The notes: generated by a model from the sequence alone, not told the origin. Shown: positions 7,385 through 33,958, numbered from the stretch's first letter. The stretch: 64,000 bases of DNA from Thermoproteus sp. (GCA_049976425.1 JBMFIG010000004.1:26503-90502); one strand, 5' to 3'. Translations and numbers: made by a program.

Positions 7385-8529
7385 CTATAAAAATACGGGA
7401 ACTCCTCTGAACTCCTCCACAAAGGCCTTGATCGCCTTTTCGTCCACGGGCCTCTTCCTTGCGGCGTAGTCCTTGACGCGCCTCAAGATATAGTCGACGA
7501 GCTCTGGGCTGGGCTCCAGCCCCATCTGCTTCAAGGCCCACTCGACGGAGTGCCTCCCCGAGTGCTTCCCCAGCACTATCCTCCTCCTGTTCCCCACGGC
7601 CTCGGGCATCATGGGCTCGTAGGTGAAGGGGTTGTTGAGGACGCCGTGGACGTGGATGCCGGACTCGTGGCTGAAGGCGTTGTCGCCCACGACTGCTTTG
7701 TTGGGCTGTAGCTGGATCCCGAAGAGCCTAGCCACCAGCCGCGACGTCTCGTAGAGCCGCTCCATCCTAAGGCCGACCTCGCGGCCCAGCAGAAAGCGGG
7801 CGGCGGCGGCCACCTCCTCCAGCGCCGCGTTGCCGCCCCTCTCGCCGAACCCGTTGACAGTGACTTGGGCCACCTCGGCGCCCGCCTCTATCGCGGCGAT
7901 GGTGTTGGCCACCGCCATGCCGAAGTCGTCGTGGCAGTGCACGTGCATGGGGACCGGCGGGAGCTCGGCCTTGAGGTGCTCCACCAGATACCTCATCCTG
8001 CTGGGCGTCATCACGCCGACGGTGTCGGGCACGTTTATCTCGTCGGCGCCTGCCTCTATCGCCGTTCTGAACGCCTCGACGAGGAAGCCCAAATCGCTCC
8101 TGGTGGCGTCCTCGGCGCTGAAGAGAACCCTAACCCCTCTGGACTTGGCGTACTCCACAGACTCAGCGATCCTCCGCAACACCTCGTCCCGCGTCATCCT
8201 CAGCTTGTACTTCATGTGTATATCGCTCGTCGCTATGAAGACGTGGACCATGTCCACATCGGCGTCGACGGCGGCGTCTATGTCGGCCTTGTTGGCCCGC
8301 GCCAGGCTGGCCACCTCTGAATACGCCGCGTCCCGCGCTATTCTCCTCACCGCCTCGGCCTCCTCGGGCGACACGGCCGCGAAGCCGGCCTCTATATAGT
8401 CCACCTTTAGTTCGTCCAACGCCATGCCTATCTGGACCTTCTCTTCGACGGTCAGAGAGATGCCGGGCATCTGTTCGCCGTCTCTGAGGGTGGTGTCGAA
8501 GAACCTCACCCGGTGAGCCCCGAATCCAT
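7385..8529 (-). CDS. leuA: 2-isopropylmalate synthase lacking the C-terminal regulatory domain; proposed start ATG 8529 with a -1 frameshift at about 8521-8518 (in-frame GTG at 8509 is an alternative start)
   Basis: [23 protein letters not shown] and HESGIH motifs; Leu codon in the leader supports the Leu-pathway assignment. Confidence 0.85.
8506..8529 (-). promoter_or_regulatory. leuA leader ORF MDSGLTG* with slip site TCG-GGG-CTC(Leu)
   Basis: ATG GAT TCG GGG CTC ACC GGG TGA; TTTTATATA at 8555-8547; -1 frame reads [17 protein letters not shown]. Confidence 0.8.
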
Positions 8530-8615
8530 ATAGCCCAGAAGCGATCTATATAAAAGGTTTTCGCCCTATATAATAGTTCACATCCGTGCTTATAAATAGA
8601 AGTCGGGTAGGCGTC

Positions 8616-9176
8616 ATGCTGAAGAAGGAAGGAGTCGAAAAGGCGGAGGCCGCCGTAACGTCCTTGTTGATCCACCTCGGCGAGGATCTATCGAGGCCCG
8701 GCGTGGCCAACACGCCGAAGCGCTTCGTCAAGGCCATGGAGGAGCTCACGAGGGGGTTGAGGGAGCCGGCGCCCGAGGTGGTCTTCTTCCCTCTGGAGTA
8801 CGAGGCGGATCCGGGCCCCGTCGTCATCGAGAACATAAGGGCGGTATCCCTCTGCGAACACCACCTGCTCCCCATAGTGCTCAACATATCTGTGGCCTAC
8901 CAGCCCGGCGACGCCGTGCCGGGGCTCAGCAAGGTGATAAGGCTGGTCAAGTGGGCCGCGGCGAGGCCCATAATGCAGGAGAGGTTCACCGAGTGGCTGG
9001 CCGACCTCCTCATGGACAGGCTGAAGGCCAAGGCGGTCAAGGTCAAGGTGTGCGGCGTCCATATGTGCTCCTTCATAAGAGGCGTCAAGGACGAGCACCA
9101 CACGATGATCACCGAGGCCAGGAGGGGCGATCTGGACGTAAGGCTCGACTGCAAACGCCCCCTGGCCTGTAGATGA
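8616..9176 (+). CDS. folE: GTP cyclohydrolase I (type IA)
   Basis: NTPKR, SLCEHHLLP, GLSK, QER and HMC..RGV motifs; TTATAAAT at 8590 supports ATG 8616. Confidence 0.9.
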   Translation: MLKKEGVEKAEAAVTSLLIHLGEDLSRPGVANTPKRFVKAMEELTRGLREPAPEVVFFPLEYEADPGPVVIENIRAVSLCEHHLLPIVLNISVAYQPGDAVPGLSKVIRLVKWAAARPIMQERFTEWLADLLMDRLKAKAVKVKVCGVHMCSFIRGVKDEHHTMITEARRGDLDVRLDCKRPLACR

Positions 9177-9847
9177 GGATAGTCGTAACGGGCGCCAGCG
9201 GCGGCATAGGCAACGCGTTGGTCGAGCTGGCGAAGTCCAGGGGGGATTTCGTCGTCGGCATTTCGAGGAGGCCCTCCAAGGCCGACCTCCACTACGCCTG
9301 CGACGTCCTGGACCTCGAATGCCTCAAGACAGCCGCGGAAAACGTCGGCGCCGTCGACGGCTTGGCGCTACTGCACGGACACGGCGATCCGGCGGTATGG
9401 AACAAGGGCGTGGAGGAGCTAGACGCCCGCGACCTCCTCACAGTCTTCGAGGTGGACGTGGTGGGTAGCCTCAACGTTGTGAAGGCGTTTATGAGGAACC
9501 TCAGAAGCGGCTCCTCCATAGTCTTCGCCGCGTCGACGCCTGCCTTGGTGGGCGACCGCTACGGGATACCCTACGCTGTTGCTAAAGGCGCTCTGGTGGC
9601 CCTCGCCAAGAGCCTTGCCAAGGCCCTAAGCCCCGTGAGGGTCAACGCCGTGGCGCTGGGCCCCATAGCCACCCGGTGGACGGCTTGGATATCGGAGGAG
9701 GAACTCGCAGGCTTTAGGGAAAGGACTCTGTTGAGGAGGCTGGGCGATCCCAGAGAGGCCGCCGAGGCGATCTACTGGCTCCTCTCGCCGGCGTCCAGCT
9801 ACGTCACGGGCCAGGTGCTGGTCGTAGACGGCGGGGAGTCCCTCTAG
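9173..9847 (+). CDS. Short-chain dehydrogenase/reductase
   Basis: TGASGGIG, YAVAK (YxxxK), VRVNAVALG and SSYVTGQVLVVDGG; ATGA overlap with folE. Confidence 0.88.
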   Translation: MRIVVTGASGGIGNALVELAKSRGDFVVGISRRPSKADLHYACDVLDLECLKTAAENVGAVDGLALLHGHGDPAVWNKGVEELDARDLLTVFEVDVVGSLNVVKAFMRNLRSGSSIVFAASTPALVGDRYGIPYAVAKGALVALAKSLAKALSPVRVNAVALGPIATRWTAWISEEELAGFRERTLLRRLGDPREAAEAIYWLLSPASSYVTGQVLVVDGGESL

Positions 9848-10935
9848 GGCCTGTACGACTGGAAGAAGCGCTCCACCTCCGGCGATAGGGCCACGCCGAA
9901 GGTGGGGTCGTTCCAGGCCCAGATGCCGACGTATTTGGGCCGCACCGCCGAGACGAGCTGCGGTATGACTTGTCCGAAGAACTGGATGGTGGCGGAGCAG
10001 TTGCGCTCCTTTATGGGTATGGTCCAGTTCCACGGCTGTATATAGCCCTGGGCGTCGCACACCCTGAAGCCCACCTCGCCAACCATAACCTGCAGACCCG
10101 AGGCCCTCAGAGCCTCCATGTTCTTCACGAAATAGCCGGGCACCTCCAAGACCCCGTTGGAGTATACGTAGTCGTAGATATCCTCGCCCACTAGATTCAA
10201 GCCGGCGGCCTTGGCGAGCGCCAGTATGTCCGAGGGCGACTCCGAGGACGTCCCGTAGTAGAAGAGGGAGGCCTCCGGGAACACCTCCTTCAACTCCCTA
10301 TAGGCCTGGGCCAGCTCCGCCCTGCAAGCAACGTCGGCGACGCATGTGGACATCTCGCTGAAGCCTATGTAGACACCAGATCCGTTTCCCAGATATAGCT
10401 TAAGGGCGTTGAGGAACGTCGAAGCGTAGGAGAGATCCACCTGTCTGAGCTCGCCCCTCCAGCCGGAAGCCGCGCAGAAGAGGTTTACGAAGAGAGGCGA
10501 CGCCGATCTGTACTGCTGTATGAAGGCCAGCGAGAGCTCGAATTGGTTGAAGTCGGCGCCGGTCTCCGGGGTACAGGGGATTACGACAACGATGCCTGGC
10601 GCCGAGCATTTAGGCACGGGCGGCACGTCGGCTCTGCCCCACGGCACAATCCAGAATATCAGCTCGGTCGGCCCTTCTTCGCAGGAGGTCGCGGAGCTAT
10701 TCACGGCCGCCGACGAGGACGTCGTGGTTTCGCGGGAGGTTGTGGATACTGGCGTAGCAGTCGTTGTGGTGGTTGTGGACCTCGATGTGGCGCTCTGCGT
10801 CGTGGACAGCGGCAACTTGCTGGAGCTTGAGGAAGCCGGAGGGGGCGGAGCCCGCGTTTGTTGCAATTCTACTATAGATATAATTACCAGGATAAGGACG
10901 GCTATAAGCAACGCTAGGGCAGGTCCTCTCGACAT
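9844..10935 (-). CDS. Membrane-anchored extracellular protein with Ser/Thr linker and putative glycoside-hydrolase-like TIM barrel
   Basis: N-terminal TM helix, long S/T tract, then a domain with GFSE, DIYDY, MVGEVG and GIWAW; last gene of the ABC operon. Confidence 0.6.
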   Translation of the reverse strand: MSRGPALALLIAVLILVIISIVELQQTRAPPPPASSSSSKLPLSTTQSATSRSTTTTTTATPVSTTSRETTTSSSAAVNSSATSCEEGPTELIFWIVPWGRADVPPVPKCSAPGIVVVIPCTPETGADFNQFELSLAFIQQYRSASPLFVNLFCAASGWRGELRQVDLSYASTFLNALKLYLGNGSGVYIGFSEMSTCVADVACRAELAQAYRELKEVFPEASLFYYGTSSESPSDILALAKAAGLNLVGEDIYDYVYSNGVLEVPGYFVKNMEALRASGLQVMVGEVGFRVCDAQGYIQPWNWTIPIKERNCSATIQFFGQVIPQLVSAVRPKYVGIWAWNDPTFGVALSPEVERFFQSYRP

Positions 10936-10938
10936 GCA

Positions 10939-11885
10939 TCAGCCGTAGAGGTGGCACGCCACTAGGTGTTGCTTCTCGGCCTCCACGATCCTCGGCTTCA
11001 CGTTTCTGCACGTCTCCGTGGCGTATGGACATCTATCGGCGAATGGGCAACCTCTGCCTGCCAGAGAGAACTCTATCGTCACACTGGTTATCCTAGAGCC
11101 CCACCGCTCCTTGACCTTGGGCACGGACGACAGAAGCAGTTGCGTGTATGGATGCAGAGGCTTGCCGAACACGGCGTCCACAGGCCCGTACTCGACCATG
11201 AGGCCCTTGTAGAGGACCAGTATCTTGTCGCCTATATAGGACGCGAGGCCCATGTCGTGCGTTATGAAGAGCACCGTGAGGCCCATCTTCTCCCTTATCT
11301 CGTGGAGGAGGTTCAGCACGGAGACCCTCAGAGAGGCGTCTATCATGGAGACCGGCTCGTCGGCAAGCAACACCTTCGGCTGTATCAACAAGGCCCTCGC
11401 TATGGATATCCTCTGCAGTTGGCCGCCGGAGAACTGATGGGGGTACTTCCCCATCACGTCCCTAGGCGTGAGGCCCACGAAGGTGAGCGTCTCCTCTATC
11501 AGCTTGGTTCTATCGGCCTCTGACAGCTCAGGCCTATATTTCTGCAAGGTCTTGTGGAGTATGCGATCGACCCTATAGAACGGGTTGAAGGACGAGTACG
11601 GATCCTGTAGGACTGCTTGAACCTCGCGCCAGTAGTCCCTAGTCCTCCACTCCCTTAGGGGGCGGCCTCTGTATTTTATCTCGCCCGACGTCGGCTCCAG
11701 CGCCTTCAGAAGTATCCTCAACAGGGTGGTCTTCCCGCTACCCGACTCGCCCACTATGGACAAAATCTCGCCCTCGTTTACGTCGAAGCTCACGCCGTCT
11801 AGCGCCAAGATATTCACAGTCCGCAGAAATCCGGTCGCGAATACCTTTGTCAGATCCCTTACTTCGTATATCCTCTCGCCGGAGC

Positions 11886-11889
<4 letters not shown>
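10939..11889 (-). CDS. Opp/Dpp-type ABC transporter ATP-binding subunit (OppF-like)
   Basis: GESGSGKT, FSGGQLQR, DEPVS, HPYT and C-terminal CPFADRC...ACH. Confidence 0.92.
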
Positions 11890-12872
<983 letters not shown>

Positions 12873-12873
12873 A

Positions 12874-14741: not shown

Positions 14742-14773
14742 AAGAAATAAGAAAAATCTTATTTAAAAATTTA

Positions 14774-22000: not shown

Positions 22001-22264
22001 TCATCGCCTCTCCCTCAACGCCACGGCCATCGCGGGCGCAGTCTGTAGCTTGCCTATCTCGAGGACCTCCGGCAGTTTGTCCAGCTTGGCCACCAGCCAG
22101 TTTATCTCGTCGGCCGGGCCCTCCACGTCCATAACTATGTGGTACGTCGAGTCCCTCGCCTCTATCTCCATGCGCCTCACGAACACCTTCGCCCTCCTCA
22201 CTATGCTGACGACCCTCCCGACGTAGTCCATCGAGGAGGGTATCCTTATGCTAATGGCGCTCAT
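22001..22264 (-). CDS. ilvN: ACT-domain acetolactate synthase small subunit
   Basis: 87 aa ACT-like protein (KLDKLPEV); overlaps the ilvB stop. Confidence 0.75.
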   Translation of the reverse strand: MSAISIRIPSSMDYVGRVVSIVRRAKVFVRRMEIEARDSTYHIVMDVEGPADEINWLVAKLDKLPEVLEIGKLQTAPAMAVALRERR

Positions 22265-24025
22265 ACCTCAACGACACGTCCTCCATCCCCTCGGGCAGAA
22301 TTGCTTGGGTTAGCCAATCGCCGGGCTTCACCCAAGGCAACACGATGTCCTTGTCCTCGTCTATGGTCACGTCTATCACTATAGGCTCGTTGTTCCTCAC
22401 AGCCCACGACACGGCCCTCTCCAGCTCCTCGTAGGTCGACGGCTTGACGCCCTCTATCCCGTAGGCCTCCGCTATCTTCAAGAAGTCGGGGTTCCTCGCG
22501 AACCTCACGGCGATCTGCCTATTGCCGTACATGTAGACCTGCCACTGCTTGACCAGCTGTAAGGACGCGTTGTCGAATATCACCTCGACAAAGGGCAGAT
22601 CGTACTCCCTCACCAGCGCGAGGTTGTTGAAGGTCATCTGGAACGACCCGTCGCCGTCTATACACACGACGGGCCTAGAGCGGTCGGCGAGCTTGGCGCC
22701 GAGAGCCGCAGGTATGCCGAAGCCCATCGTGCCCAGGCCGGCCGACGTTATGAAGGTCCCCGGCTCGTACACCTCCCACCAGATCTCCGACCACATCTGG
22801 TGTCCCCCCACGCCCGTCACGGTGACGGCGTTCGGCGGCGTGGCCCTCCTCACCGCCTTTAGCACCTTCCAGGGCGCGAAGTACTTGAACTTGCCGGCGG
22901 CCTTCTCCATGGCCTCTTCGTACCTCCTCCTGATCTCGTAAAGCCAGGCGAGGAACTTGGGGCTCCTCGCGGCGGCCGACGGCATTAGGTCCAGCATCTC
23001 CCTAAGAGCCTCCTTGGCGTCCGCTATTATGCCGACGGTGGGCTTCACGTTCTTCCCCACCTCGCTTCGGTCGATATCTATATGGATCAGCTTGACCTCG
23101 CCCGACCTAACCATCTCCTGGAGCTCCTTGAACCTCCCCCAAGTCCTGTCGCTGAACCTGGTCCCCACGGCCACCACCACGTCGGCGTTTGCCAAAGCCG
23201 CGTCCGCCTCGGCCCTCCCGTGCATCCCGGCCGGCCCCATATACAGCGGGTGGTTGTGGGGGATGGCGGCCTTCCCGGGCAAGGTCGACACGATGGGCGC
23301 ATTGAGCCTCTCGGCGAGCTCCAGCACCTCCTTGGTGGCGCCCGACCACAACACTCCGCCTCCCGCCAGCACCACCGGCCTCTCCGCCTCCAAGATCATC
23401 TTGACGGCCTTCGCCACGTCCTCCTCCCTGGGCTTGGGAGGTATGAACTTTGCCGCGTTTATCTGTATCTTGGCCTCGCCCCTATACTCCATCAGCTGGA
23501 GATCCCTCGGCAGATCCACCAAGGTCGGTCCGGGCCTCCCCAGCATCGAGATCTCGTAGGCGATCTTGACGGCGGCCGTGGCCTCCTCCGGCCTCTTCAC
23601 CTGGTACACCCACTTGGTTATAGGCGTCGCCACCCCCAATATGTCGGTCTCCTGGAACCCATCCCTCCCGAACACCCACGTGGCTACCTGCCCCGTTATC
23701 GCCGCGACGGGCACCGAGTCCATGTAGGCGTCGGTCAAGCCAGTCACCAAGTTCGTGGCGCCGGGGCCGCTCGTAGCGGCCACCACGGCGGGCCTCCCCG
23801 CTACTCTGGCGTAGCCCTCGGCTGCGTGCACGGCGCCCTGCTCGTGGCGGAACATGACCACCTCTATGTCGTCTACGAAATACGCCGCGTCGAATAGGGC
23901 CATTATAGAGCCGCCCGTTATTCCGAGGATGTGCCTTACCTTGAGCTCCCTAAGCGTGTCGATTATTCTGTCGACGACTCTATTGGGGCGATCCCCTCGA
24001 GCCCCGAAGCGACCCCCGAATCCAT
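22251..24025 (-). CDS. ilvB: Acetolactate synthase large subunit; proposed start ATG 24025 with a -1 frameshift in the leader
   Basis: [32 protein letters not shown] and DGDGSF; the only in-frame start (TTG 24032) lies upstream of the expected transcription start. Confidence 0.92.
23963..24025 (-). promoter_or_regulatory. ilvB leader [23 protein letters not shown] with three slip sites G-GGG-GTC(Val), G-GGG-CTC(Leu), G-GGG-ATC(Ile)
   Basis: ATG GAT TCG GGG GTC GCT TCG GGG CTC GAG GGG ATC ... TAA; TTTAAATA at 24052-24045. Confidence 0.85.
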
Positions 24026-24128
24026 ACGGCAACTATTTAACCTATATTTAAAGATTGTCTTCCTACATAAAAGGCGGAGGAGGCGCCGTACGAGCGGAAT
24101 GCTTAAAAGCTATATAGATACCTGCGCC

Positions 24129-24617
24129 ATGGAGATAAGAGGTCGGGCACTGGTCTACGGCGATAAGATAGACACCGATATAATCATACCGGCCCGCTAT
24201 CTGGTATACACCGACCCCAAGATCTTGGGCGAACACGCCATGGAGCCTCTGGACCCCGACTTCCCCAAGAAGGCCAAAGGCGCCATACTGGTGGCCGGCA
24301 GGGCCTTCGGGATGGGCAGCAGCCGCGAGCAGGCGGCGACGGCCCTCAAGGGCGCCGGCGTCTTAGCCGTCGTGGCCGAGTCCTTCGCCCGCATATTCTT
24401 CCGCAACGCCGTCAACGTAGGCCTTCCCGTCCTTCAAGCCCCCGCCAGGAGCAGAGTGAGAGAGGGCGACGAGCTCCTCGTGAGGCTGGACGCGGGCGAG
24501 GTGGTGAACCTCACCACTGGCGAGGTCATCAAGGGGAAGCCGCTCTCCGGCTTGGTCCTCGACATAATAAAAGCGGGCGGCCTCGTGGAGTACCTAAAGG
24601 CCAGGCCCCGTATATAG
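24129..24617 (+). CDS. leuD: 3-isopropylmalate dehydratase/homoaconitase small subunit
   Basis: [38 protein letters not shown] and GGL. Confidence 0.92.
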
Positions 24618-24666
24618 AGCGAATATAGTCGGCGCTAGGCTTAAATATCCCGCGGCCTCTGCCGCC

Positions 24667-24687
24667 ATGCGTTCGGGGAAAACGTAA
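24667..24687 (+). promoter_or_regulatory. Homocitrate synthase leader ORF MRSGKT* with slip site TCG-GGG-AAA(Lys)
   Basis: ATG CGT TCG GGG AAA ACG TAA; CTTAAATA at 24640-24647; -1 frame reads GENVKILDSTLREGEQ. Confidence 0.85.
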
Positions 24688-26060
24688 AGATCCTCGACTC
24701 GACGCTGAGGGAAGGCGAGCAGACCCCCGGCGTCGTCTTCTCCGAAGATTGGAGGATTAGGATCGCCAAGGCCCTCTCAGATGCCGGCGTCCACATGATA
24801 GAGGTGGGCGATCCCAACGTGGCGCCCGACATAAGGTCGGCCATAGCGAAGATAGTGGCCATGAAGAGAGACGGCGAGATAGCCGGCGAGATCGTGGCCC
24901 ACAGCAGATCGGTCAAGGCAGATATAGAGAACGCCGCGTCGCTCGAGCCCGACAGGGTGGCTATATTCTACGGCGTGAGCGACATACACTTGAAGCACAA
25001 GCACAGGAAGTCGAGGGAGGAGGCCCTGTCCATAATTGCGGAGCACGTGGAGTTCGCGAGGAGCCACGGAGTGCGCGTGAGGTTCACTGCCGAGGACGCC
25101 ACGCGGGCCGACCCCGACTACTTAATACAGGTGGTCAAGACGGCGAGGGATGCGGGAGCCGACAGGGTGAGCATCGCCGACACCGTGGGTATCTTGACGC
25201 CCGAGAAGGCGCGGCGGCTGTTCGCCGAGGTCAAGGAGGCCGTGCCCGACGTGGGGCTCGACATACACGCCCACAACGACCTCGGCATGGCGGTGGCCAA
25301 CTCCTTGGCGGCCGTCGAGGGGGGAGCCGACGTGGTCCACACGACGGTGAACGGCCTCGGCGAGAGGGCAGGGATAACGCCGCTCCAGACGTTCGCCGCG
25401 GCGTACTACTACCACAGGGGGGTGAAGCTGATAGATCTGACTAAGTTGCCCTACCTGGCCTCCTTGGTGGAGGCGGCCAGCGGCATAGCGCAGATGCCCA
25501 CGTTCCCCGTGACCGGCGACAACGCCTTCACGCACAAGGCCGGGGTCCACCAGGCCGGCGTGTTGGCGAGCCCCGAGACCTACGAGCCGTTCCCTCCCGA
25601 GGTGGTGGGCCGCACGAGGGACTTCTCGTTGGACAAATACAGCGGGAGGAAGGCCGTCGCCCACAGGCTCGAGAGGCTCGGCGTCAAGGTCGACGAGGAG
25701 GTCTTGGGGAAGCTCGTGGAGGAGCTGAAGTCCACCAACGCGCGGAGGCTACGCGACGAGGATCTCCTCGAGATGTTGGAGAAGATAACCGGGATGAGGT
25801 ACAGGGCGCAGGTCAACAAGCACATAGAGGCGTACGTCTGGGTGAAAGTCGACGAGAACGTCTACACGACGTCGGTGGCCAGGAGGATCATGGCGATAAG
25901 GGGCGTGACCGGCGTCGGCGAGGTGACGGGCGAGTTCGACATAGTGGCCAAGATATCGGCCGAGAACGCCGAGGAGCTGAACAGGATAATCGAGGAGGTG
26001 AGGGCCGTCAAGGGCGTCAAGTCGACGCTCACCAATATAGTCCTGAAACAGCTTTCATAA
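24667..26060 (+). CDS. Homocitrate synthase with C-terminal Lrp/AsnC (RAM) domain; start ATG 24667 requires a -1 frameshift at 24675-24678
   Basis: DSTLREGEQ motif lies upstream of the first in-frame ATG (24795); HAHNDLG, GLGERAG and HKAGVH; C-terminal VTGEFDIVAKI RAM domain as in Sulfolobus HCS. Confidence 0.88.
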
Positions 26061-26080
26061 ACCCCTCCGTCCCGCATCGA

Positions 26081-26755
26081 GTGCCCCTGGTTTCTTGGGA
26101 CGAGGTTACGCCGGAGGAGCTCAAGCGTAGATATAGGGGAGGGCCTCTGCTGATACTGACCCACTGCACCAAGACCAAGAACGTCGAGTGGCGCGCCGTC
26201 GCTGACGCGTTGGCGTCCGCCGGGCTCCCCACGCCCGGCATGGATCTAGAGAGGGAGGAGCTCTATAGATCCGCCTTGAGGGATTTCGTCAAGCCCGCGG
26301 CTGAAATGTATGGGGGCTCCTTCAAGAGGGTCAGGGAAATCGCCGAGGCGGTCGCCAGATGCCTCCCCGTCGACCTCTATATACTGAGCGCGAGATACGG
26401 CTTGATAAGGGCCGACGAGATCGTGGTGCCCTACGAAGCCACGCTGAACGGACTGAGCGCGGCTGAGCTGGAGCGGTGGGCCGAGGCCAGAGGCGTCTGG
26501 GACAAGGCGGTCGAGCTTCTGGAAAAGGGGTACGGGATGGCCGTGGCCTTCCTCCCCGGCAATTATGCCAGAGCCCTCGGGCCGGCTCTAGGCAAGATGC
26601 TGGCCTCGGAGAACGCCCTTCTGTTGATCCCCCAGAGGCTGGCAGGACGTAGCCCCAGAGCGCTTGTGGTGAAGAACAGAGGGATTTTCAGCAGATACGG
26701 CGATCTGTCCAACGCCAGACGCCTTCTAGAGAAAGCCCTCTGCGATCAATATTAA
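26081..26755 (+). CDS. Hypothetical protein, DUF6884/YaaA-like
   Basis: PAAEMYGG...LYILSARYGLI...PYEATL motif. Confidence 0.6.
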   Translation: MPLVSWDEVTPEELKRRYRGGPLLILTHCTKTKNVEWRAVADALASAGLPTPGMDLEREELYRSALRDFVKPAAEMYGGSFKRVREIAEAVARCLPVDLYILSARYGLIRADEIVVPYEATLNGLSAAELERWAEARGVWDKAVELLEKGYGMAVAFLPGNYARALGPALGKMLASENALLLIPQRLAGRSPRALVVKNRGIFSRYGDLSNARRLLEKALCDQY

Positions 26756-26774
26756 AAGGGGGCTTTACCGATAC

Positions 26775-27755
26775 ATGAAGCTCGCGGTCATCCCAGGCGA
26801 CGGCATAGGGCCCGAGGTGGTGTCGGCCGCGATGAGGGTCGTCGAGGCCGCGGCTAGGAGGTTCTCCATAGACATAGAGGCCAAATACGTCGAGGCGGGA
26901 GACGCGGCGTTGAGGAAGTACGGCAGAGCCATGCCCGACGACGCCTGGCGCGTCGTGGACTCGGCCGACGCCGTCCTCAAAGGCCCCGTCGGCGAGATCG
27001 CATACGACGTCACCTCGGCTATAAGGATGAAGTACGTCCTCTACGCCAACATAAGGCCGGCCAAAAGCCTTCCGGGGGTGCCCTCGGTGAAGCCCATAGA
27101 CTGCGTCTTCATTAGAGAGAACGTCGAGGACGTATACGTGGGGGCCGAGTACAAGGTCGGCGACGTGGCCATCGCGCTCAAGGTCATCACGGGGCAGGGC
27201 ACCAGGAGAGTCGCCAGGATGGCCAGACGCTACGCGGAGATGAGGAGGAGGAAGGTCACCATAGTCACCAAGTCCAACGTGTTGAGGGTGGTGGACGCCT
27301 TCTTCAGAGATGTGGCGAAGGAGGAGCTCAAGGGGCTTGAGGTCGAGGAGATGTACGTGGACGCGGCTGCCATGGAGCTCGTGAGGAACCCCGCCCGCTT
27401 CGACGTGGTGCTCACGACCAACCAATACGGCGATATACTCACCGACCTCGCGGCGCAGGTGGCCGGAAGCCTCGGGCTGGCGCCGTCGGCAAATATAGGG
27501 GACTCCAAGGCCATGTTCGAGCCGGTCCACGGAGCCGCGTTCGACATAGCCGGCAAGGGCATAGCGAATCCCGTGGCGACCATACTCTCGACGGCTTTGA
27601 TGTTCGAGTGGATGGGGCGCAACGACGCGGCGGCGGCCGTGAGGAGGGCTGTGGAGGAGGCTCTGAGGCGCGGCGTCGCTACGCCGGACGTGGGAGGCCG
27701 CTCCACCACCGAGGAGGTGGGCAAATATATAGCATCCCTCGTCGAAAATATATAA
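26775..27755 (+). CDS. leuB: 3-isopropylmalate/homoisocitrate dehydrogenase family
   Basis: PGDGIGPEV, RENVED, NQYGDILTD, FEPVHGAAFDIAGKGIANP. Confidence 0.9.
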   Translation: MKLAVIPGDGIGPEVVSAAMRVVEAAARRFSIDIEAKYVEAGDAALRKYGRAMPDDAWRVVDSADAVLKGPVGEIAYDVTSAIRMKYVLYANIRPAKSLPGVPSVKPIDCVFIRENVEDVYVGAEYKVGDVAIALKVITGQGTRRVARMARRYAEMRRRKVTIVTKSNVLRVVDAFFRDVAKEELKGLEVEEMYVDAAAMELVRNPARFDVVLTTNQYGDILTDLAAQVAGSLGLAPSANIGDSKAMFEPVHGAAFDIAGKGIANPVATILSTALMFEWMGRNDAAAAVRRAVEEALRRGVATPDVGGRSTTEEVGKYIASLVENI

Positions 27756-27775
27756 CTCGGCGTAGGACATATAGA

Positions 27776-28048
27776 ATGGACTGCGCGTCTATCTGCGGCG
27801 TCTCCTTCTCCGCAGATTTCGGCGAGGACGAGGCCTCGTTGTTGAGGGCCATCTATGCCGCCGCGATCCGCCTCGGCCCTCCGGGCGCTTGCTACGTGAT
27901 ATGCAAGTCCGTCGAGAGGCTGTGCGGGATCTCGGGCGACTGCAACGCAGCCCTTAGGGAATTCGTCAAGAAATACCCCAAGGCGGCCGAGCTCTACCGG
28001 TCCGAGCTCCTACGTATCGCCGCTGGCGTGCGGGAGAAGCCGGCTTAA
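27776..28048 (+). CDS. Small Cys-rich hypothetical protein (90 aa)
   Basis: ATG 27776 downstream of ATATATAA; genome-typical codon usage. Confidence 0.55.
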   Translation: MDCASICGVSFSADFGEDEASLLRAIYAAAIRLGPPGACYVICKSVERLCGISGDCNAALREFVKKYPKAAELYRSELLRIAAGVREKPA

Positions 28049-28558
28049 CGCCTGCGAGAAGTAGTCGACGAAGCCCTCCTGTTCGAATAGAGGAGGCAGA
28101 AGCTTTCCGCGGCAACCGGCGTCCCGCCAAGCCGCCTCGATCCTGTCGTATATGATACCCCTCGTCAGAACCACCGGGGCCGCCAAATCTCTACAAGAGG
28201 ACTGCTGTATAGACGGCTCGCCTTCTAGGAATACGTAGGGAAGGCCTAGGGACTTCACATCGGATATGTACTCCTCGTCGTCGCCGCCGTGGAATATGTA
28301 GAGATAGGCGCCCAAGCTCCTCAGATAGTCGCCGAACCCCGGCCAGCGCGCGAGAGGCGGTATGGAGGACCCCGCCAACGCCGCCGCCCTCTTGTAATCC
28401 CCGCCGCCCGCCACGAACACGGGCACGTAGAGCGCTCCCGACGGCTTCGTGGGCTCGTTAAGGAAGGCGTATCTGACGCCGAGCCTCTCGGCGAAGGCCT
28501 TTACCGACTCCTTATATCTGGGATCGCGCGATCCGTGGAGAAGGAGGACGATATCCAC
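28010..28558 (-). CDS. CbiX/SirB-like chelatase family protein
   Basis: VLLLHGSRDP N-terminal motif; second FHG repeat; GEPS. Confidence 0.6.
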   Translation of the reverse strand: MDIVLLLHGSRDPRYKESVKAFAERLGVRYAFLNEPTKPSGALYVPVFVAGGGDYKRAAALAGSSIPPLARWPGFGDYLRSLGAYLYIFHGGDDEEYISDVKSLGLPYVFLEGEPSIQQSSCRDLAAPVVLTRGIIYDRIEAAWRDAGCRGKLLPPLFEQEGFVDYFSQALSRLLPHASGDT

Positions 28559-28630
28559 GCGGCTTTCCCGACTGATCTTGAAAAGCCTTAATGTCATGGT
28601 GGACAGGAATCTATATACTAGGCGGGGAAG

Positions 28631-28795
28631 TTATGTAACTTCTATATGTTCGGTGAGCAACTCCGTGCCGCAACGGGGACAGCAATAGGTCACCAGTATG
28701 TACCTTTTGGATAGGGATTTCCTGCTACATTCTTTGGGCTTCACCGGACGTTTGCAGTTCGGGCATACGACCGTGGAGAGTCTGCGTTCCCCCAT
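28631..28795 (-). CDS. Small zinc-ribbon protein (54 aa), not in the ORF track
   Basis: MGERRLSTVVCPNCKRPVKPKECSRKSLSKRYILVTYCCPRCGTELLTEHIEVT; two CPxC knuckles; TATATAAA upstream. Confidence 0.7.
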   Translation of the reverse strand: MGERRLSTVVCPNCKRPVKPKECSRKSLSKRYILVTYCCPRCGTELLTEHIEVT

Positions 28796-28936
28796 CGACG
28801 TCTAGAGAGCCTCCCTTTATATAGCTTTTTATCCCTTTTTCTAGAGTAATATCGATCTCTATATAGAGACTCTCAAAGAAAATTATAAGCAATTTTCAAA
28901 GTTAATACTATAATAAATAACTTTATTATTAGAGTT

Positions 28937-30159
28937 TTATTTCTTATCCATAGATCTTTTACTTAACGCCGTCAAGCTATGTAGCGACCACATCTCTATG
29001 AACCCCCTCGCCTCCTCGTCGGTCGGGTACCACCCCTTGGAGTAGTCCGCCAGCTCCTTGCTGTAGGTGCCGTATTTGGAGTCCCTGGCGACTATCTGCA
29101 CAGATCCCTTGTAGAGCTTCGCCTTCACCCACCCGTCGACCCACCTCTCCATCTCGCCGGCGGCCGCCTCGATGGCGAGCCTGAGCGGCTCCACCCACAG
29201 CCCCTGGTAGACTAGGTCTGCCCAGTAGGGGTCGAGGACGTTGTGCTTGAACCTGAGCTCCCTCGGCGTGAGGACCAGCTTCTCGAGATCCCTATGCGAC
29301 TCGAAGAGTATGACCGCGGCGGGGGCCTCGTACACCTCTCTGCTCTTGAAGCCCACCAGCCTGCTCTCGATGTGGTCTATCCTCCCGACCCCCGCGGCTC
29401 CGCCTATCTGGTTAAGCGCCTTCACGAGGGAGAGCATGTCCATGCGCTCGCCGTTGATAGCCCTAGGCAGGCCCCCCTCGAACTCTATCTCCACGTAGGT
29501 TGGCTGGTCGGGCGCCTTCTCGGGCTGGACGGTCCACTTGAAGGCGTCCTCGGGCGGCTCGAGCCTCTGGTCGTCGACGGGCCCTCCCTCTATGGAGCGG
29601 CTCCAGAGGTTCTCGTCTATGCTGTACTTCTTGTGGGCCTCCGGCACAGGTATGCCGTGCTTCTTGGCGTACTCGATCTCCTGCTCCCTGCCCATGCCCC
29701 AAACCCTCGCGGGGGCCAACACCTCCAAGTCGGGCGCAAGGGCCTTTGCGGTGACGTCGAAACGGACCTGGTCGTTTCCCTTGCTGGTGCTCCCGTGGGC
29801 TATGGCGTCAGCCCCCTCGCGCCTCGCCACCTCGACGGTCTTCGCGACAATCAGCGGCCTGGCCAACGCAGTGCCTAGGGGGTACTTCCCCTCGTACATG
29901 GCGTTCATGAGGACGGCCCTGCCGACGTACTCCTCGGCGAATTCCCTCTTGGCGTCTATGGTGTAGTGCTTGACCGCGCCGGCCTTATAGGCCCTCGCCT
30001 CGACCTCCGAGAAGTCCTCCTCCTGCCCTACGTCGACCGTGACCGTGATAACCTCGGCGTTGTACTTCTCCGAGAGCCACTTGATGGCGACCGTGGTGTC
30101 GAGCCCGCCCGAGTAGGCGAGCGCGATCCTGCTTATTCTCGCCCCGACTTACTCGCCAT
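28937..30159 (-). CDS. argG: Argininosuccinate synthase; proposed start ATG 30159 with a -1 frameshift at about 30145-30142
   Basis: N-terminal LAYSGGLDT motif is in frame but has no ATG/GTG/TTG before it; YPLGTALARP, HGSTSKGNDQVRF and KSREVYEAP. Confidence 0.92.
30133..30159 (-). promoter_or_regulatory. argG leader ORF MASKSGRE* with slip site TCG-GGG-CGA(Arg)
   Basis: ATG GCG AGT AAG TCG GGG CGA GAA TAA; ATG overlaps the lysW 3' end after a purine-rich tract; -1 frame reads GARISRIALAYSGGLDT. Confidence 0.85.
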
Positions 30160-30334
30160 AGTCCTCCACATCCCCCTTGAACTCCTCTAGGGTTACCGAG
30201 CCGCCCTTGAGCCTCACAATATACCGGGTCCCGCACGTGGGGCAACTGGCTATCTCGCCGTCCATCACGTCCTCCGGCAACTCGAACTCCGTGCCGCAGA
30301 CCTTGCACTGGACCACCAGCTTTTGGGTTGCCAT
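30149..30334 (-). CDS. lysW: Amino-group carrier protein LysW
   Basis: 61 aa; CKVCG...GEIASCPTCG zinc ribbon; C-terminal EDYGE (canonical EDWGE). Confidence 0.92.
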   Translation of the reverse strand: MATQKLVVQCKVCGTEFELPEDVMDGEIASCPTCGTRYIVRLKGGSVTLEEFKGDVEDYGE

Positions 30335-30404
30335 ATGGGCGAGTTCTGGGGTATATAAAACCTTTACCGACAAGGCCGGGCGGCCTCGCCGCGGGCGGCC
30401 AGCC

Positions 30405-31388
30405 TCAGCCGGTCCGCCTCAACGCCAGCTTGACCAGCTCGCGGTGGAGCGGCGTCTGCCACGCGTAGTCCTTCCCCACCCCGAGATCCTTACCTCCCTC
30501 GATCGGGGCTAGGGGATCCACGATCTTTACCACTAAGTTTTTCGAGACCAGATATCTAATGAGCTCTCTGGGGGCATCCAGCAGAACGTCGGGGTCGGCC
30601 AGCGCCTCCTCGACGACCTTTCTATACTTCGCCAGCAACTGCACGTCGATACCCCTAACCTTATACATCTTCTCCACAAGCCTCTCGACCGACCAGCCCT
30701 CCCCGGCGAGCAGCTCAACTAATCTAGGGTTGCCGCCCGCGGCGCTCCAGAGCCGCTCCGCGTCTTGGCCTGCATCGGGTATCTGCCCCACCAGCTCCTT
30801 GAAGCCCGCCTTGTTGAGGTTCCAGATAGTCCTCACGTCGGCCCACAGATGCCGGCCGATGGCCTCGAGGCTTTCTCCCTCAGACGAGGCCAAGATCACG
30901 AATATCTTCCCCACCTCCACGGGCGGGTGCTCGGCTAAGTTGAGAGCCTTCTTTACGTATAGCTCTGCGTTGCTTACTGACTGAAATACGTCGTCTAGGA
31001 GCAATGCGAGGCTGTCTATCCTCCTCACGCCTAGCCTTCTGGCGAATATCTCGCCGATCGCCAACACGGCCTCGGCCACGGCCGAGGCGAGTTCTCCTCC
31101 AACGGCGCGGGCGAGGGACGTGACGGCCTTCTTTACGTCGTCTGGCGCCGTCAGCCCCTCCTCGGGGCCGTATAGCGGGGAGTAGTAGATCACGTAGTCG
31201 TAGGACCCGGAAAGCCTCTTGTGCAAGTACCTCAGAAGGGAGGTCTTGCCGCACCCCTCGGGGCCGTATATGACCAGAGGCACCGAGCGGCCGCGCTGGG
31301 CGAGGTCCAACAGCCTCTCTGTCTCGTCGCCGCGGTCGGCGAAACAGACGTAACGCCCCAAGAACTTCACCCTAAAGCCGCAGTCCAC
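30405..31388 (-). CDS. Archaeal ATPase (Thermoproteaceae-expanded family)
   Basis: FADR, YGPEGCGKT, LDDVFQ, SSEG, GGNPR and GVGKDYAWQTP; GTG 31388 lies 26 nt from TTTATA. Confidence 0.85.
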   Translation of the reverse strand: MDCGFRVKFLGRYVCFADRGDETERLLDLAQRGRSVPLVIYGPEGCGKTSLLRYLHKRLSGSYDYVIYYSPLYGPEEGLTAPDDVKKAVTSLARAVGGELASAVAEAVLAIGEIFARRLGVRRIDSLALLLDDVFQSVSNAELYVKKALNLAEHPPVEVGKIFVILASSEGESLEAIGRHLWADVRTIWNLNKAGFKELVGQIPDAGQDAERLWSAAGGNPRLVELLAGEGWSVERLVEKMYKVRGIDVQLLAKYRKVVEEALADPDVLLDAPRELIRYLVSKNLVVKIVDPLAPIEGGKDLGVGKDYAWQTPLHRELVKLALRRTG

Positions 31389-31444
31389 CGGCGTAGAGGG
31401 GACAACGATATAAATCTTTGGCGGGACCTTCGGCAGGCCGCGCG

Positions 31445-32224
31445 CTACCCGACCACGTGGGTCCCCGCGCCGTTGAGGGCAACATCTATGGGGGCCTCCA
31501 CCAAGCCGCTGGATATTATCACCTCGATCCCGGCCTTGGCGGCCTCTGCGGCCATCAACAGCTTCCTCTTCATGCCGCCTTTGACCTCCTCGTTCTGGAC
31601 AAGCCGCTCCGCCTCTTCGGCCGTGAGGCGCGGCACCACCCTCCCGCCGATATAGAGGCCCTCGACGTCGCTGAGGAGCACCAGCTTCTCGGCGCCTGTC
31701 CTTTTGGCCACGTCGAACGCCAGCTGGTCGCCGTCTATGTTCAGGAGCTCGCCCCTCTCCGACACGGCGATGGGGGCCAGCACCCTCAACGGCGGCGGCG
31801 CCAGCTTGGAGGCGTCTATCTCTGTTATACGGCCCACGTAGCCCCCGTCCACGACCCTCTGCCTCCCCCTCTCGTCGACCACCAGCACCTTCTCCTTGCG
31901 CTTGGCCCTCACCACGCCTAGATCGGCCCCGGTTAGGCCCAGCGCCGGCACGCCCATGCCGTGTAGCGAGGCGACTATGGACTTGTTTATCCAGCTCATG
32001 GCCATGACGAAGGCCTTTAAGGTCTCCCAGTCCGTGTAGCGGCTTACGAGCCCGCCGGGGTGCGTGAGGAATTTCGGCTCTATCCCCATCCTCTTCATCA
32101 ACTCGTTGACAAGACACCCCCCGCCGTGGACCACGACCGCCTTGTCGGCGTATTTGGGCAGGTTGCGGATCGCCATCGAGGCGTCCTTGCAGATAACGGA
32201 TCCTCCTATCTTGATCACGATCAT
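31445..32224 (-). CDS. lysZ: [LysW]-aminoadipate/[LysW]-glutamate kinase
   Basis: [32 protein letters not shown] and GGMKRKL. Confidence 0.92.
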
Positions 32225-33276
32225 ATGGGGTGGGGAGGTATGTACCTAAGCCCTTGATCCTCGGGGAACCCCGCCGCTATGTTGAACGCCTGCACGGCCT
32301 GCCCGGCGGCCCCGCGCACCAAGTTGTCTATGGCCGAGAACGCGACGACCCTCCTCATCCTGGGATCTATCTCGAAGCCCACGTCGACTATGTTGGTGCC
32401 CAGTACATATTTTATATTTGGATAGCGCGCTAGGCCCAGCTTGTCCTTCACGATCCTCACGAACTTCGAGTCGCCGTACATGGCCCTATACGCCTTCCAC
32501 AACGTCGGCTCGTCCACGTCGCGTTCGGTGAACACGTGCGCCGTGGAGAGTATGCCCCTCACGGCGTCGACGGCGTGCGGCGTGTAGGCCACCCTCACCT
32601 CCCTCCCCGCAAGCCGCGAGAGCTCCTGCTCCACCTCCGCCGCGTGTCTGTGGTGAACCGGCTCGTAGGGCCTTATGACGTAGGTGCGGTGGCTGTGCAT
32701 GTCGAGGACCGACCCCTCGGCCCCGGCGCCTGAGGAGCCCATCTTCACGTCGATTACCGGCGGGAGGGGGCCTAGAAGCCCGTATTTGGCCAGAGGCGCG
32801 AGCGCCATTATGGATGCAGTGGCGGTGCACCCGGGAGACGCTATGAGCTTGGCGCCGGGTAGCTCGTCCTTGTGCAGTTCGGGGAGGCCGTAAACCGCCT
32901 TCTTCAAGAGATCGGGGTAGGGATGCGGCTGCGGCCACTTATACCACTCCACGTAGGCGTTGGGATCCTTCAGCCTGAAGTCGGCCGACAGGTCGACCAC
33001 CATGAGGCCGTGCTCGTACAGCTGGGGGACCCACTTGACCGACTCGCCGTGGGGAAGCGCCAGGAAGACCACGTCGGCCTTCAACGCGGCGTCGATGCTG
33101 GGCTCCACGAACTTGAGGTTTGTGAATCCCCTGAGGTTTGGGTGGATCCTGTAGACGTACTCCCCCTTGAACTTCCTAGAGGTGGCGCAGACTATCTCGA
33201 CCCCTCCGTGCTGTAGCAAGATGCGCAACAGCTCTCCGCCGGTGAATCCGGAGGCCCCCACTACGCAAGCCTTCAT
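32221..33276 (-). CDS. lysY: [LysW]-aminoadipyl/glutamyl-phosphate reductase (ArgC family)
   Basis: [34 protein letters not shown] and [12 protein letters not shown]. Confidence 0.93.
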
Positions 33277-33958
33277 GCCTCCTCCAGCCCGACCTCGGCC
33301 AGGAGCCTCGCCCTAGCCTCGTCCAGCTCCGGCACGGGGTCTACGTCTATCACGCGCTCCCCGTCGTCGTAGACGCCGAGCGTGATCTCAGCGTACTTGA
33401 GGCCCAGCGACCTCAACACCTCGCCCGCTATCCCGTCGATCCCGGGCACGGCGAACACCTTCCTGACCTCTCTGGGCTTGGGCATGGCGATGCTACCCTT
33501 GGCCAGGGGGTTCCTCATGTAGTTGCGGTGCTCCACGACGCTTTTGGCCCCCTCTACGCTAGTCACCGACACGTCTAGGCCCAGGCGCCAGACGGTCGCG
33601 AGGAGCCACGGCGGCTTGAAGTCCACCTTCTCCACGGCCTCCTCGTCGGAGAACACGAAGAAGTGGGGGCCGTATTTGGGCAACCAGTACAGCCTATTGA
33701 GCGCGTTGTATATGGCGTATGAGGGGTTTATCGATCTGCGGAACAGGGAGGCGTACACAGCGCCGAGGTACTGGTTCCTCGTCCTTATGAAGACGGTGAA
33801 GTCCCCGCCCTCGACATGTCCCTGGGATATATCGAGGATATCGGCATGCGCGCCGCGGGCCGATAGGAGCTTGGCGAGAAGCCTCTCGCCTAGCTCGGGC
33901 TTCTCGGATAGTATGAGTATCCTCGCCCCGTTGGCCCCGCTTTCCCCGCAAGGTCCAT
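33273..33958 (-). CDS. Degenerate LysX/ArgX (RimK ATP-grasp)-like protein, about 228 aa; start ATG 33958 requires a -1 frameshift
   Basis: Open frame RILILSEKPELGERLL...FIRT...SINPSYAI..ALNR...IDVDPVPEL parallels LysX (IN...I...D; EVN.VPEF); first gene of the lysY-lysZ operon with ATGA overlap. Confidence 0.6.
33890..33958 (-). promoter_or_regulatory. Leader ORF MDLAGKAGPTGRGYSYYPRSPS* with three slip sites G-GGG-AAA(Lys), G-GGG-CCA(Pro), G-GGG-CGA(Arg)
   Basis: ATG GAC CTT GCG GGG AAA GCG GGG CCA ACG GGG CGA ... TAG; TTTATATA at 33986-33979. Confidence 0.85.

Follow-up and report, generated by a model that had tools for sequence, protein, structure and literature searches.

Conserved out-of-frame leaders with cognate sensor codons suggest an amino-acid-sensing frameshift regulon in Thermoproteus and related archaea

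Introduction

A 64,000-nt stretch of DNA from Thermoproteus sp. (GCA_049976425.1 JBMFIG010000004.1:26503-90502), called the window below and used as the reference for all coordinates, raises the question how enzymes of amino-acid biosynthesis can be made from genes whose first ATG does not lie in the frame of the enzyme. The genes concerned are a leuA-like gene, ilvB, the gene for homocitrate synthase (HCS), argG and an ArgX-like gene heading the lysY-lysZ operon. In each of them, the first ATG is placed +1 relative to the enzyme frame and opens a short open reading frame (ORF) of 6-22 codons, which carries one to three units consisting of a codon ending in G, the codon GGG and a codon for a product of the pathway (NNG-GGG-cognate). 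An earlier note on this DNA, made from the sequence alone, had described five such leaders with nine sites at which a -1 shift leads into the enzyme frame, and had proposed that they sense amino acids; all of the described elements were found where the note had placed them.

The anatomy of the leaders, their conservation in related genomes and the agreement of the sensor codons with the pathways are directly established by the present analysis. With good confidence, we take the leaders to be programmed -1 ribosomal frameshift switches which sense the supply of aminoacyl-tRNA, an interpretation that is supported as far as sequence comparison goes. Thermoproteus/Pyrobaculum-type archaea would probably possess a regulon that is turned on by starvation-induced -1 slippage at G-GGG followed by one cognate sensor codon, the first natural use of hungry-codon frameshifting. 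In the genome studied here, this regulon is likely to comprise at least 18 operons serving the supply of Leu, Val, Ile, Lys, Arg, Pro, Thr, Trp, Tyr, Phe and Cys together with the Ile, Trp and Cys tRNA synthetases.

Leader anatomy and proposed slip sites

The region of the window that bears the leaders has a G+C content of about 60% and codes for amino-acid biosynthesis genes, as judged by Pfam and NCBIfam matches. The leader of the leuA-like gene (8506..8529, minus strand) reads ATG GAT TCG GGG CTC ACC GGG TGA, seven codons and a stop in the +1 frame relative to the enzyme, and contains the slip site and Leu sensor TCG GGG CTC at 8515..8523 (minus strand). The enzyme frame (7385..8518, minus strand), a member of the 2-isopropylmalate/homocitrate synthase family with HMGL-like and HCS_D2 domains, begins at GCT (8518) after a -1 slip. 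For ilvB, the leader of 20 codons and a stop (23963..24025, minus strand) holds three units on the same strand, namely a Val sensor in TCG GGG GTC (24011..24019), a Leu sensor in TCG GGG CTC (23999..24007) and an Ile sensor in GAG GGG ATC (23990..23998). The enzyme frame of this acetolactate synthase large subunit (22251..24014, minus strand) encodes TPP_enzyme N, M and C domains, and ilvN (ACT domain), ilvC and ilvE lie 3' of it.

On the plus strand, the HCS leader ATG CGT TCG GGG AAA ACG TAA (24667..24687) presents its slip site and Lys sensor as TCG GGG AAA (24673..24681), and the enzyme frame (24678..26060) ends in a C-terminal AsnC/RAM-type ligand-binding domain. The argG leader ATG GCG AGT AAG TCG GGG CGA GAA TAA (30133..30159, minus strand) has the Arg sensor in TCG GGG CGA (30139..30147, minus strand) and gives access to the argininosuccinate synthase frame at 28937..30142 (minus strand). 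The longest leader, 22 codons and a stop (33890..33958, minus strand), belongs to the ArgX-like gene and bears Lys, Pro and Arg sensors in GCG GGG AAA (33941..33949), GCG GGG CCA (33932..33940) and ACG GGG CGA (33923..33931), all on the minus strand; the enzyme frame, an ArgX/LysX-like ATP-grasp protein assigned by predicted fold only, occupies 33273..33944 (minus strand).

All nine slip sites of the window thus have the form NNG-GGG followed by a codon for a pathway product, and eight of them are NCG-GGG. At each of the nine, a -1 slip on GGG leads into the enzyme frame as assigned by Pfam or NCBIfam, with GAA, GCG, GCC, GCT, GGT or GAT as the A-site codon after the shift. Every unit contains a single cognate codon, so that a leader carries one to three of them; tandem codon runs are absent.

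Four of the five leader ATGs show the promoter spacing of an ordinary gene, as the earlier note had claimed. TATA-like boxes were located at 8547..8556 for the leuA-like gene (CTTTTATATA, minus strand, 27 to 18 nt 5' of the leader ATG), at 24044..24052 for ilvB (TTTAAATAT, minus strand), at 24640..24648 for HCS (CTTAAATAT, plus strand) and at 33979..33986 for the ArgX-like operon (TTTATATA, minus strand); the TATA-like octamer begins 27-28 nt upstream of the leader ATG, and the ordinary neighbour folE (ATG at 8616) is identically spaced. No separate TATA box precedes the argG leader, whose ATG lies within the final codons of lysW, which encodes a carrier protein (30149..30331, minus strand).

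In three of the genes, an in-frame start is missing where one would be expected. The HCS open frame of 471 codons has its first in-frame ATG, GTG or TTG at residue 51; the corresponding positions are residue 81 of 403 in argG and residue 80 of 240 in the ArgX-like gene, in each case inside or past the conserved N-terminal domain. Ordinary in-frame ATG starts were found for the leuC-like (5309), leuD-like (24099) and leuB-like (26775) genes as well as for ilvC, ilvE and lysW. Both observations bear out what the earlier note had said of these genes.

Proposed mechanism

From the sequence patterns we infer a leaderless start, slippage and a dependence of slippage on starvation. The TATA spacing suggests that the leader ATG is at or very near the 5' end of the transcript, and the mRNA would probably be leaderless, with the ribosome initiating at the 5' ATG one base off the enzyme frame. 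Leaderless transcription was first described in Pyrobaculum, as stated in the available text of a later paper (PMC6028130, citing Slupska 2001). One to about 11 codons further on, glycyl-tRNA would occupy GGG in the P site and one codon for the end product would stand in the A site. Where the cognate aminoacyl-tRNA is abundant, the sensor codon would be decoded and the nearby stop reached, yielding a peptide of 3-26 residues only (gene OFF); with scarce aminoacyl-tRNA, the A site would stay empty and the P-site tRNA-Gly would re-pair one base back on G-GGG and enter the enzyme frame (gene ON). Branched pathways would be served by multi-unit leaders (such as Val/Leu/Ile and Lys/Pro/Arg) that work as an OR gate. 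The regulatory sign of such a switch fits, as biosynthetic enzymes and synthetases would be made when the amino acid is short.

The sensors include rare codons of this genome: AAA accounts for 15% of Lys codons, CGA for 5% of Arg, CCA for 6% of Pro and ACA for 10% of Thr. CGA, CCA and ACA are the rarest codons of their respective families, and the commonest Ile codon (ATA) and the commonest Val codon (GTG) never serve as sensors. This choice fits slow decoding, which would make the sensors slow and sensitive.

Two other routes into the -1 frame were considered and rejected. Slippage of two tRNAs on a canonical X XXY YYZ heptamer is excluded, as the -1 A-site codons do not pair with the sensor tRNAs. 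Membership in the canonical -1 frameshift class was likewise rejected, as a downstream hairpin or pseudoknot was not found at the leuA and HCS 5' ends. There, 24 leuA and 24 HCS sequences showed no excess folding stability over mononucleotide shuffles (mean z -0.4), and for an alignment of 18 of the 24 leuA leaders RNAalifold returned -5.9 kcal/mol, a covariation term of -0.15 kcal/mol and no conserved structure. The lack of downstream structure in leuA and HCS is as expected because slippage is proposed to occur at a vacant A site. Rfam reported no family at its gathering threshold in the whole window. ARAGORN, which misses intron-rich tRNAs, found no tRNA gene in the window; in the genome it called 16 tRNA genes, and in intron mode 43 with implausible duplicates, and Gly-CCC and Gly-UCC were among the calls.

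Conservation in related genomes

Orthologues were collected from 40 related genomes belonging to family f1, with the genus of the source organism (g1) and the genera g3 and g2, and to two further families of the order. Leaders were detected by frame, as a +1-frame ATG with a cognate unit, the detector demanding NNG-GG(G/A). Counts for g1 and g3 refer to loci from 23 genomes, many of them one-contig assemblies. In these two genera, 176 of the 179 loci compared, which belong to eight gene families, have kept the device. It was found in every locus of argG (22/22, all NCG GGG CGA), ilvB (23/23), leuA (22/22), the ArgX-like gene (23/23), TrpRS (21/21) and ThrC (23/23), in 20 of 22 IleRS loci and in 22 of 23 HCS loci; the missing HCS case is a match from query residue 86 onwards, so that its 5' end lies outside the match. 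Alignment of orthologous 5' ends, put forward in the earlier note as a check, therefore shows the out-of-frame ATG and the cognate unit to be kept for all five window genes. For the whole of family f1, the totals are 24/24 for leuA, 25/25 for ilvB and 24/25 for HCS, the 25th HCS locus not being evaluable.

Within the units, some positions are nearly invariant while others drift. The leuA slip site and sensor TCGGGGCTC is unchanged in 17 of 18 aligned orthologues and reads ACGGGGCTC in the 18th. Among 279 units of family f1, the slip codon is GGG in 274 and GGA in five, and the preceding codon, for which the detector required a final G, takes ten forms with TCG as the most frequent (138). The sensor codons of f1 vary synonymously: Val is specified by GTA (16), GTC (9) or GTT (2), Leu by CTC (44) or CTT (5), Ile by ATT (30) or ATC (13) and Thr by ACA (17) or ACG (6). 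Orthologous leaders vary freely in their spacer codons, in their length and in where the stop falls. As judged from these comparisons, the pattern is one of selection on a slippery GGG together with a codon for a given amino acid, and not on a nucleotide motif or a peptide.

The arrangement of units differs between the genera. The ArgX-like leaders of g1 have the order Lys-Pro-Arg, those of g3 the order Pro-Lys-Arg. For ilvB, an Ile unit occurs in 9/9 g1 loci and 6/14 g3 loci; a second Val unit replaces it in one further g3 locus, and in one g3 genome (L094) it has decayed to CGA GGG ATT, which is unable to slip and was not scored as a unit. ThrC leaders carry Thr only in g1 and mostly Ile and Thr in g3, where nine loci (L233, L235-L239, L241, L243 and L244) place an Ile unit, GAG or GCG GGG ATT, directly 5' of the Thr unit.

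Relatives with in-frame genes are informative about the site of the frame change. The in-frame ArgG of genus g8 begins M-S-R-I-G-R-I-V-L-A-Y-S-G-G, and the enzyme frame of the window reads A-R-I-S-R-I-A-L-A-Y-S-G-G after the slip site. IleRS is in frame in two genomes, G015 (L184) and G022 (L182). In G015, a genome of g3, it starts M-S-R-G-D-F-K-L, and the sequence ATG GGG ATT TTA AGC of its relatives gives M-G-D-F-K-L after a -1 slip, as if the switch had been fixed in the ON position through a one-base change. Since in-frame relatives match the predicted trans-frame product, the frame change is placed at the slip site. The earlier note had named orthologues that are simply in frame as an observation that would speak against frameshifting; such orthologues were met only in family f2 and for single g2 genes, and their in-frame N-termini are colinear with the trans-frame products.

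An f2 exception is argG of genus g4 (L029, L030), in which both loci have an out-of-frame ATG and CTG GGA CGA, a GGA variant with the same Arg codon. A further argG candidate in genus g6 (L026) is doubtful: its ACG GGA CGA follows a 19-codon lead-in within a 23-codon leader that lies 125 nt upstream.

A probable regulon beyond the window

The whole 1.84-Mb genome was scanned blindly for ATGs preceded by seven A/T in seven bases at -36 to -24 and opening an ORF of at most 45 codons that contains NNG-GGG, the -1 frame having to stay open for at least 120 codons. This strict scan returned 26 ATGs before 25 ORFs. Of these ORFs, 16 encode tRNA synthetases or enzymes of amino-acid biosynthesis and carry a cognate sensor, namely four window genes and 12 others. 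The latter encode threonine synthase (thrC; Thr), citramalate synthase (Ile), anthranilate synthase I (trpE; Trp), a TrpB-like enzyme (trpB2; Trp), prephenate dehydratase (pheA; Phe), the N-terminal transketolase subunit (Tyr and Trp), CarA (carA; Arg), LysX (Lys), a cysteine-synthase-like PLP enzyme (Cys), IleRS (Ile), TrpRS (Trp) and CysRS (Cys). From a looser scan with 98 matches, argG, which lacks its own TATA box, and aroD-chorismate mutase (Tyr; TATA score 6) were added, giving 18 genes with 23 units and thirteen cognate genes beyond the five of the window; the broad scans, with 401 and 98 matches, were too noisy for counting. A relaxed scan (TATA 6 of 7, GTG/TTG starts, GGA slip codons) produced 118 further matches, and among the matches listed only aroD-chorismate mutase was judged real and the others noise. 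The suggestion of the earlier note that the motif would precede genes of other pathways was thus borne out for trp, aro, thr, cys and three synthetase genes; for his, met and ser, no case was found in the strict scan or among the relaxed-scan matches listed.

By textbook pathways, 22 of the 23 sensor codons in this genome are cognate. When leaders were shuffled among the 18 genes, 3.7 matches were obtained on average, and 22 was reached in none of 200,000 shuffles. The 23rd unit is the Pro unit on the ArgX-like/lysY/lysZ operon; it fits the proposal, made for T. tenax in the available text of its genome paper, that proline is formed from ornithine. The same text places the split transketolase in an aromatic gene cluster. 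The transketolase leader contains Tyr, Trp and Phe units in four of five relatives (L340-L343 in G013, G010, G003 and G016) and only Tyr and Trp in this genome and in G002. For eight extra biosynthetic genes, the device was present in 40/40 loci of five complete genomes, one of these loci (L351) being doubtful.

The raw number of G-GGG matches, 26, is not striking in itself, and the signal lies in gene function and conservation. Control motifs, whose matches were counted without a family scan, gave 13 for C-CCC, 11 for A-AAA, 6 for T-TTT, 12 for G-GGG with a +1 shift, 32 for a non-G before GGG and 218 for any codon with a -1 shift. The nine non-cognate ORFs of the strict scan include genes for a proteasome beta subunit, RNase Z, a macro-domain protein and an MBL-fold hydrolase as well as three ORFs without a family match, one with an in-frame ATG 4 nt downstream; the ORFs at C5:20595 and C38:7747 were left out of the family scan.

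A separate observation concerns CysRS (G000:C14, L254), whose enzyme frame is open over 813 codons and reaches far upstream of its leader and TATA box, where it probably overlaps with the frame of the upstream gene.

Weighing of alternative explanations

Several observations weigh against the proposed switch or restrict its range. The constancy of the G before GGG is partly circular, as the detector demanded NNG-GG(G/A). The device is absent from most loci of the more distant family f2, where the genes are in frame, and genus g2 has it for HCS, ilvB and leuA only and lacks it for argG, IleRS, TrpRS and ThrC; here, argG (L024, L027) and ThrC (L247, L248) were scored absent, the candidate units being non-cognate or beside an in-frame ATG, and the family-by-genus table counts g2 argG as 1/2 on account of L027. 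CysRS has the device in 0/14 g3 loci versus 7/8 evaluable g1 loci, and trpE in 1/14 g3 loci, where the gene is mostly operon-internal, versus 9/9 g1 loci. No convincing His, Met or Ser case turned up in the strict scan or among the relaxed-scan matches listed, those operons not having been directly examined, and for amino acids other than those of the 18 genes the genome scans gave no case. That rare sensor codons are read by a single isoacceptor is background knowledge and not a result of this analysis. Finally, in-frame start codons do exist near some slip sites: a GTG at 8509 in leuA, a TTG at 24032 in ilvB, an in-frame GTG formed by G and the TG of the Trp sensor in 21/21 TrpRS leaders, and, for IleRS, an in-frame ATG in 15 of the 20 loci with a leader. 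For leuA, ilvB, TrpRS and most IleRS loci, some enzyme could be made from these starts without slippage.

The latter starts lend some plausibility to an otherwise unlikely explanation, by which the short ORF is a regulatory leader peptide that involves no frameshift: pausing would act through access to an internal start, coupling or mRNA stability, and the enzyme would be initiated independently. Leader ORFs with cognate codons act in this way in bacterial attenuators and, according to the available text, in mycobacterial leaderless Cys-rich ORFs (bioRxiv 10.1101/834739), and public gene calls use ATA or internal starts. As a partial route for leuA, ilvB, TrpRS and IleRS this explanation is possible. 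HCS, argG, ThrC and the ArgX-like gene, however, mostly lack an in-frame start before the conserved domain, such a start being present in g1 and g3 in only 5/22 argG, 7/23 ArgX-like and 7/23 ThrC loci, and the ATA at which the public 471-aa HCS call (P0020) begins sits in the HCS TATA box. In G019 and G017 the argG leader does not reach its stop until after the SGG motif, and the HCS leader of G013 ends only after the LDSTL motif; a restart after the leader would therefore delete these motifs, and stops inside essential motifs rule it out. A leader peptide would also leave unexplained the G-preceded GGG directly before every sensor, the constant -1 position of the enzyme frame in the 176 of 179 loci and the colinearity of in-frame relatives with the trans-frame product across the slip site.

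A -1 frameshift might also be real but constitutive, giving low fixed expression or repairing an ancient deletion without any response to amino acids. G-GGG is slippery in the P site regardless of the next codon, and frameshifts which "correct" indels are known, as the available text of a review states (PMC5009743). We nevertheless regard this as quite improbable, as it would explain neither the 22 of 23 cognate A-site codons, a match never reached by shuffling, nor the conservation across genera of the amino acid instead of the nucleotides, nor the multiple units for different amino acids on branched pathways. Correction at the RNA level, with an RNA polymerase that slips on the G run and adds one G to give an in-frame mRNA, would lead to the same protein as a -1 ribosomal slip, and slippage during transcription is known as an alternative to frameshifting by the ribosome, again according to the text available of that review (PMC5009743). 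The G runs are, however, only four long, or five before Val codons. Known transcriptional slippage sites are longer homopolymers. Moreover, the conserved cognate codon would have no role and multiple units would be pointless, and we judge this explanation very improbable. Least of all do we give weight to a sequencing or assembly error in G homopolymers or to decaying pseudogenes. The window does come from a 96-contig draft, and the picture at a single site would follow from deletion of one G, but this explanation is refuted by the comparative data: the same design recurs in those 176 of 179 loci of 23 genomes and two genera, one-contig genomes included, and the enzyme frames are uninterrupted from end to end. 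A sequencing error at these sites, the first of the objections named in the earlier note, is excluded because the same design is present in many independently sequenced genomes. Independently assembled contigs of the public metagenome run X1 covering 22200-34100 showed scattered substitutions and no indel at the four leaders covered; this run is possibly related to the source sample and gives weak independent support.

Relation to known regulatory systems

Frameshifting by -1 at "hungry codons" was described in starved E. coli by Gallant and Lindsley as a one-tRNA route that needs no stimulatory structure, in the available text of two reviews (PMC8211752, PMC5009743). A 2016 review by Atkins and colleagues, as far as its text was available, states of functional trans-frame products formed in this way that "no examples are known" (PMC5009743). 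The switch proposed here resembles hungry-codon frameshifting, as far as this is described there, in a P-site tRNA able to re-pair one base back, and it would share with it a limiting A-site aminoacyl-tRNA. The N-NNN sequence required for re-pairing is found as G-GGG at 9/9 window sites. In the accounts available, hungry-codon frameshifting is a laboratory error on reporters, whereas here it would be a conserved 5' device of about 18 operons with an A-site codon matched to the pathway.

In the attenuation leaders of bacteria (trp, leu, ilv, thr, his and pheA), codons for the end product are translated and the speed of the ribosome sets expression, the ilv leader containing Val, Leu and Ile codons. 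The archaeal leaders share with them the short 5' ORF with end-product codons and the multivalent leaders for branched pathways. They differ in that the reading frame would be changed instead of a terminator/antiterminator, in that each sensor is one codon and not a codon run, and in that the leader overlaps and fuses to the enzyme; they are archaeal with mRNAs that are probably leaderless, and no conserved RNA structure was found. A transcription attenuator was therefore considered as a candidate and rejected, as the leader overlaps the enzyme ORF with no spacer for terminator/antiterminator hairpins. T-box riboswitches of Gram-positive bacteria bind uncharged tRNA by a structured 5' untranslated region (UTR) and thereby turn on synthetase and biosynthesis genes when the cognate tRNA lacks its amino acid, and one codon sets their specificity. 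The regulon described here is T-box-like in its composition of synthetase and biosynthesis genes and in its one-codon specificity; unlike a T-box, it has no UTR and no Rfam family in the window, and sensing would occur in the ribosomal A site.

Autoregulation of prfB, the gene of release factor 2, proceeds by a +1 frameshift, as set out in the available text of PMC12421855. The likeness lies in an early short ORF, a slowly decoded A-site codon and P-site slippage into the productive frame on shortage. In prfB, slippage goes in the +1 direction, a stop codon decoded by RF2 itself serves as sensor, a stimulator resembling a Shine-Dalgarno sequence takes part and one gene is concerned; here, the direction would be -1, the sensors are sense codons and a regulon takes the place of one gene. 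In Archaea, fucA1 of Saccharolobus solfataricus was the only -1 case reported according to the accessible text of a 2021 review (PMC8211752; also PMC1616953). As is proposed here, an archaeal -1 ribosomal frameshift is needed there for the full-length enzyme; in the texts available, however, fucA1 is a single gene with a mid-gene slippery sequence joining two long ORFs and no link to amino-acid sensing. The polycysteine short ORFs of mycobacteria (bioRxiv 10.1101/834739) are also leaderless, sense one amino acid by cognate codons and control a downstream operon, and they differ, according to the available text, in using runs of Cys codons and attenuation, with neither frame change nor fusion of leader and enzyme.

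In agreement with the remark of the earlier note that such leaders were not known in archaea, full-text literature searches, with subscription-journal papers and supplements outside their reach, retrieved no description of the device. The available text of a frame-transition survey of 1106 genomes does not mention these genes, nor does that of the T. tenax genome paper. If the proposal is true, these archaea possess a counterpart to attenuation and T-box control which manages without UTR, RNA structure or protein factor, and a long-known translational error has been turned into a physiological mechanism. For archaea with leaderless mRNAs, a one-codon sensor within the first codons would be the simplest amino-acid-sensing device described. 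The sensor codon further predicts the controlling amino acid, so that Pro on the ArgX-like/lysY/lysZ operon would support the formation of proline from ornithine. For engineering, the leaders would offer a compact and portable design for amino-acid-responsive expression at high temperature.

Gene starts in public annotations

Public gene calls are inconsistent at the N-termini of leader-bearing genes, some being truncated and some begun at ATA. ArgG is given with 323, 382, 385, 393, 396 or 399 aa and HCS with 421, 425, 471 or 475 aa. The 399-aa ArgG call (P0004) starts at an ATA in the enzyme frame, the T. tenax ArgG entry (P0003, 385 aa) starts downstream of the SGG motif and a call for the ArgX-like protein (P0032) is shortened to 192 aa. 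This disagreement suggests that the device was not recognised by annotators.

Identity of the fifth gene and neighbouring genes

The ArgX-like gene had been called lysX-like in the earlier note, a name that holds for the fold and not for the sequence. The protein gave no Pfam match at E<=0.1, no NCBIfam match at E<=1e-8 and no BLASTP similarity to the real LysX of the genome (E=14). An AlphaFold2 model built from a 19-sequence alignment reached a pLDDT of 92.3, and its best Foldseek match was ArgX of Sulfolobus tokodaii (3vpb; E 6e-13, TM 0.85), with the bifunctional LysX/ArgX of Thermococcus (5k2m) and LysX of Thermus (3vpd) among the further top matches. All three exceed the protein in length by about 60 residues. 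By predicted fold only, it is closest to the ArgX/LysX ATP-grasp ligases.

Downstream in the same operon lie lysY, encoding an argC-type reductase (32221..33276, minus strand), and lysZ, encoding [LysW]-aminoadipate/[LysW]-glutamate kinase (31445..32224, minus strand), both with ordinary ATG starts; lysZ bears the name of a bifunctional Lys/Arg kinase. The Lys and Arg sensors of the operon are explained by this succession of an ArgX-like ligase, lysY and a bifunctional Lys/Arg kinase. The real LysX, encoded elsewhere in the genome, has a Lys-only leader.

In HCS, residues 396-469 (25830-26057) form the AsnC/RAM-type domain (Pfam PF01037, E 1.3e-15), which may exert allosteric control on top of a translational switch. 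Between HCS and the leuB-like dehydrogenase lies an ORF with a DUF6884 domain (E 2.4e-11; open frames 25445-26752 and 26081-26755, plus strand). Long open frames on the minus strand at 9844-10938, 26688-27788 and 28010-28630 are without a Pfam match; that at 26688-27788, which overlaps the leuB-like gene on the opposite strand, is probably not a gene. Compared with the window, the run X1 contigs lack 4 bases at 30898 and, a short way upstream of lysW at 30362-30377, show a 1-base insertion and a 15-base deletion.

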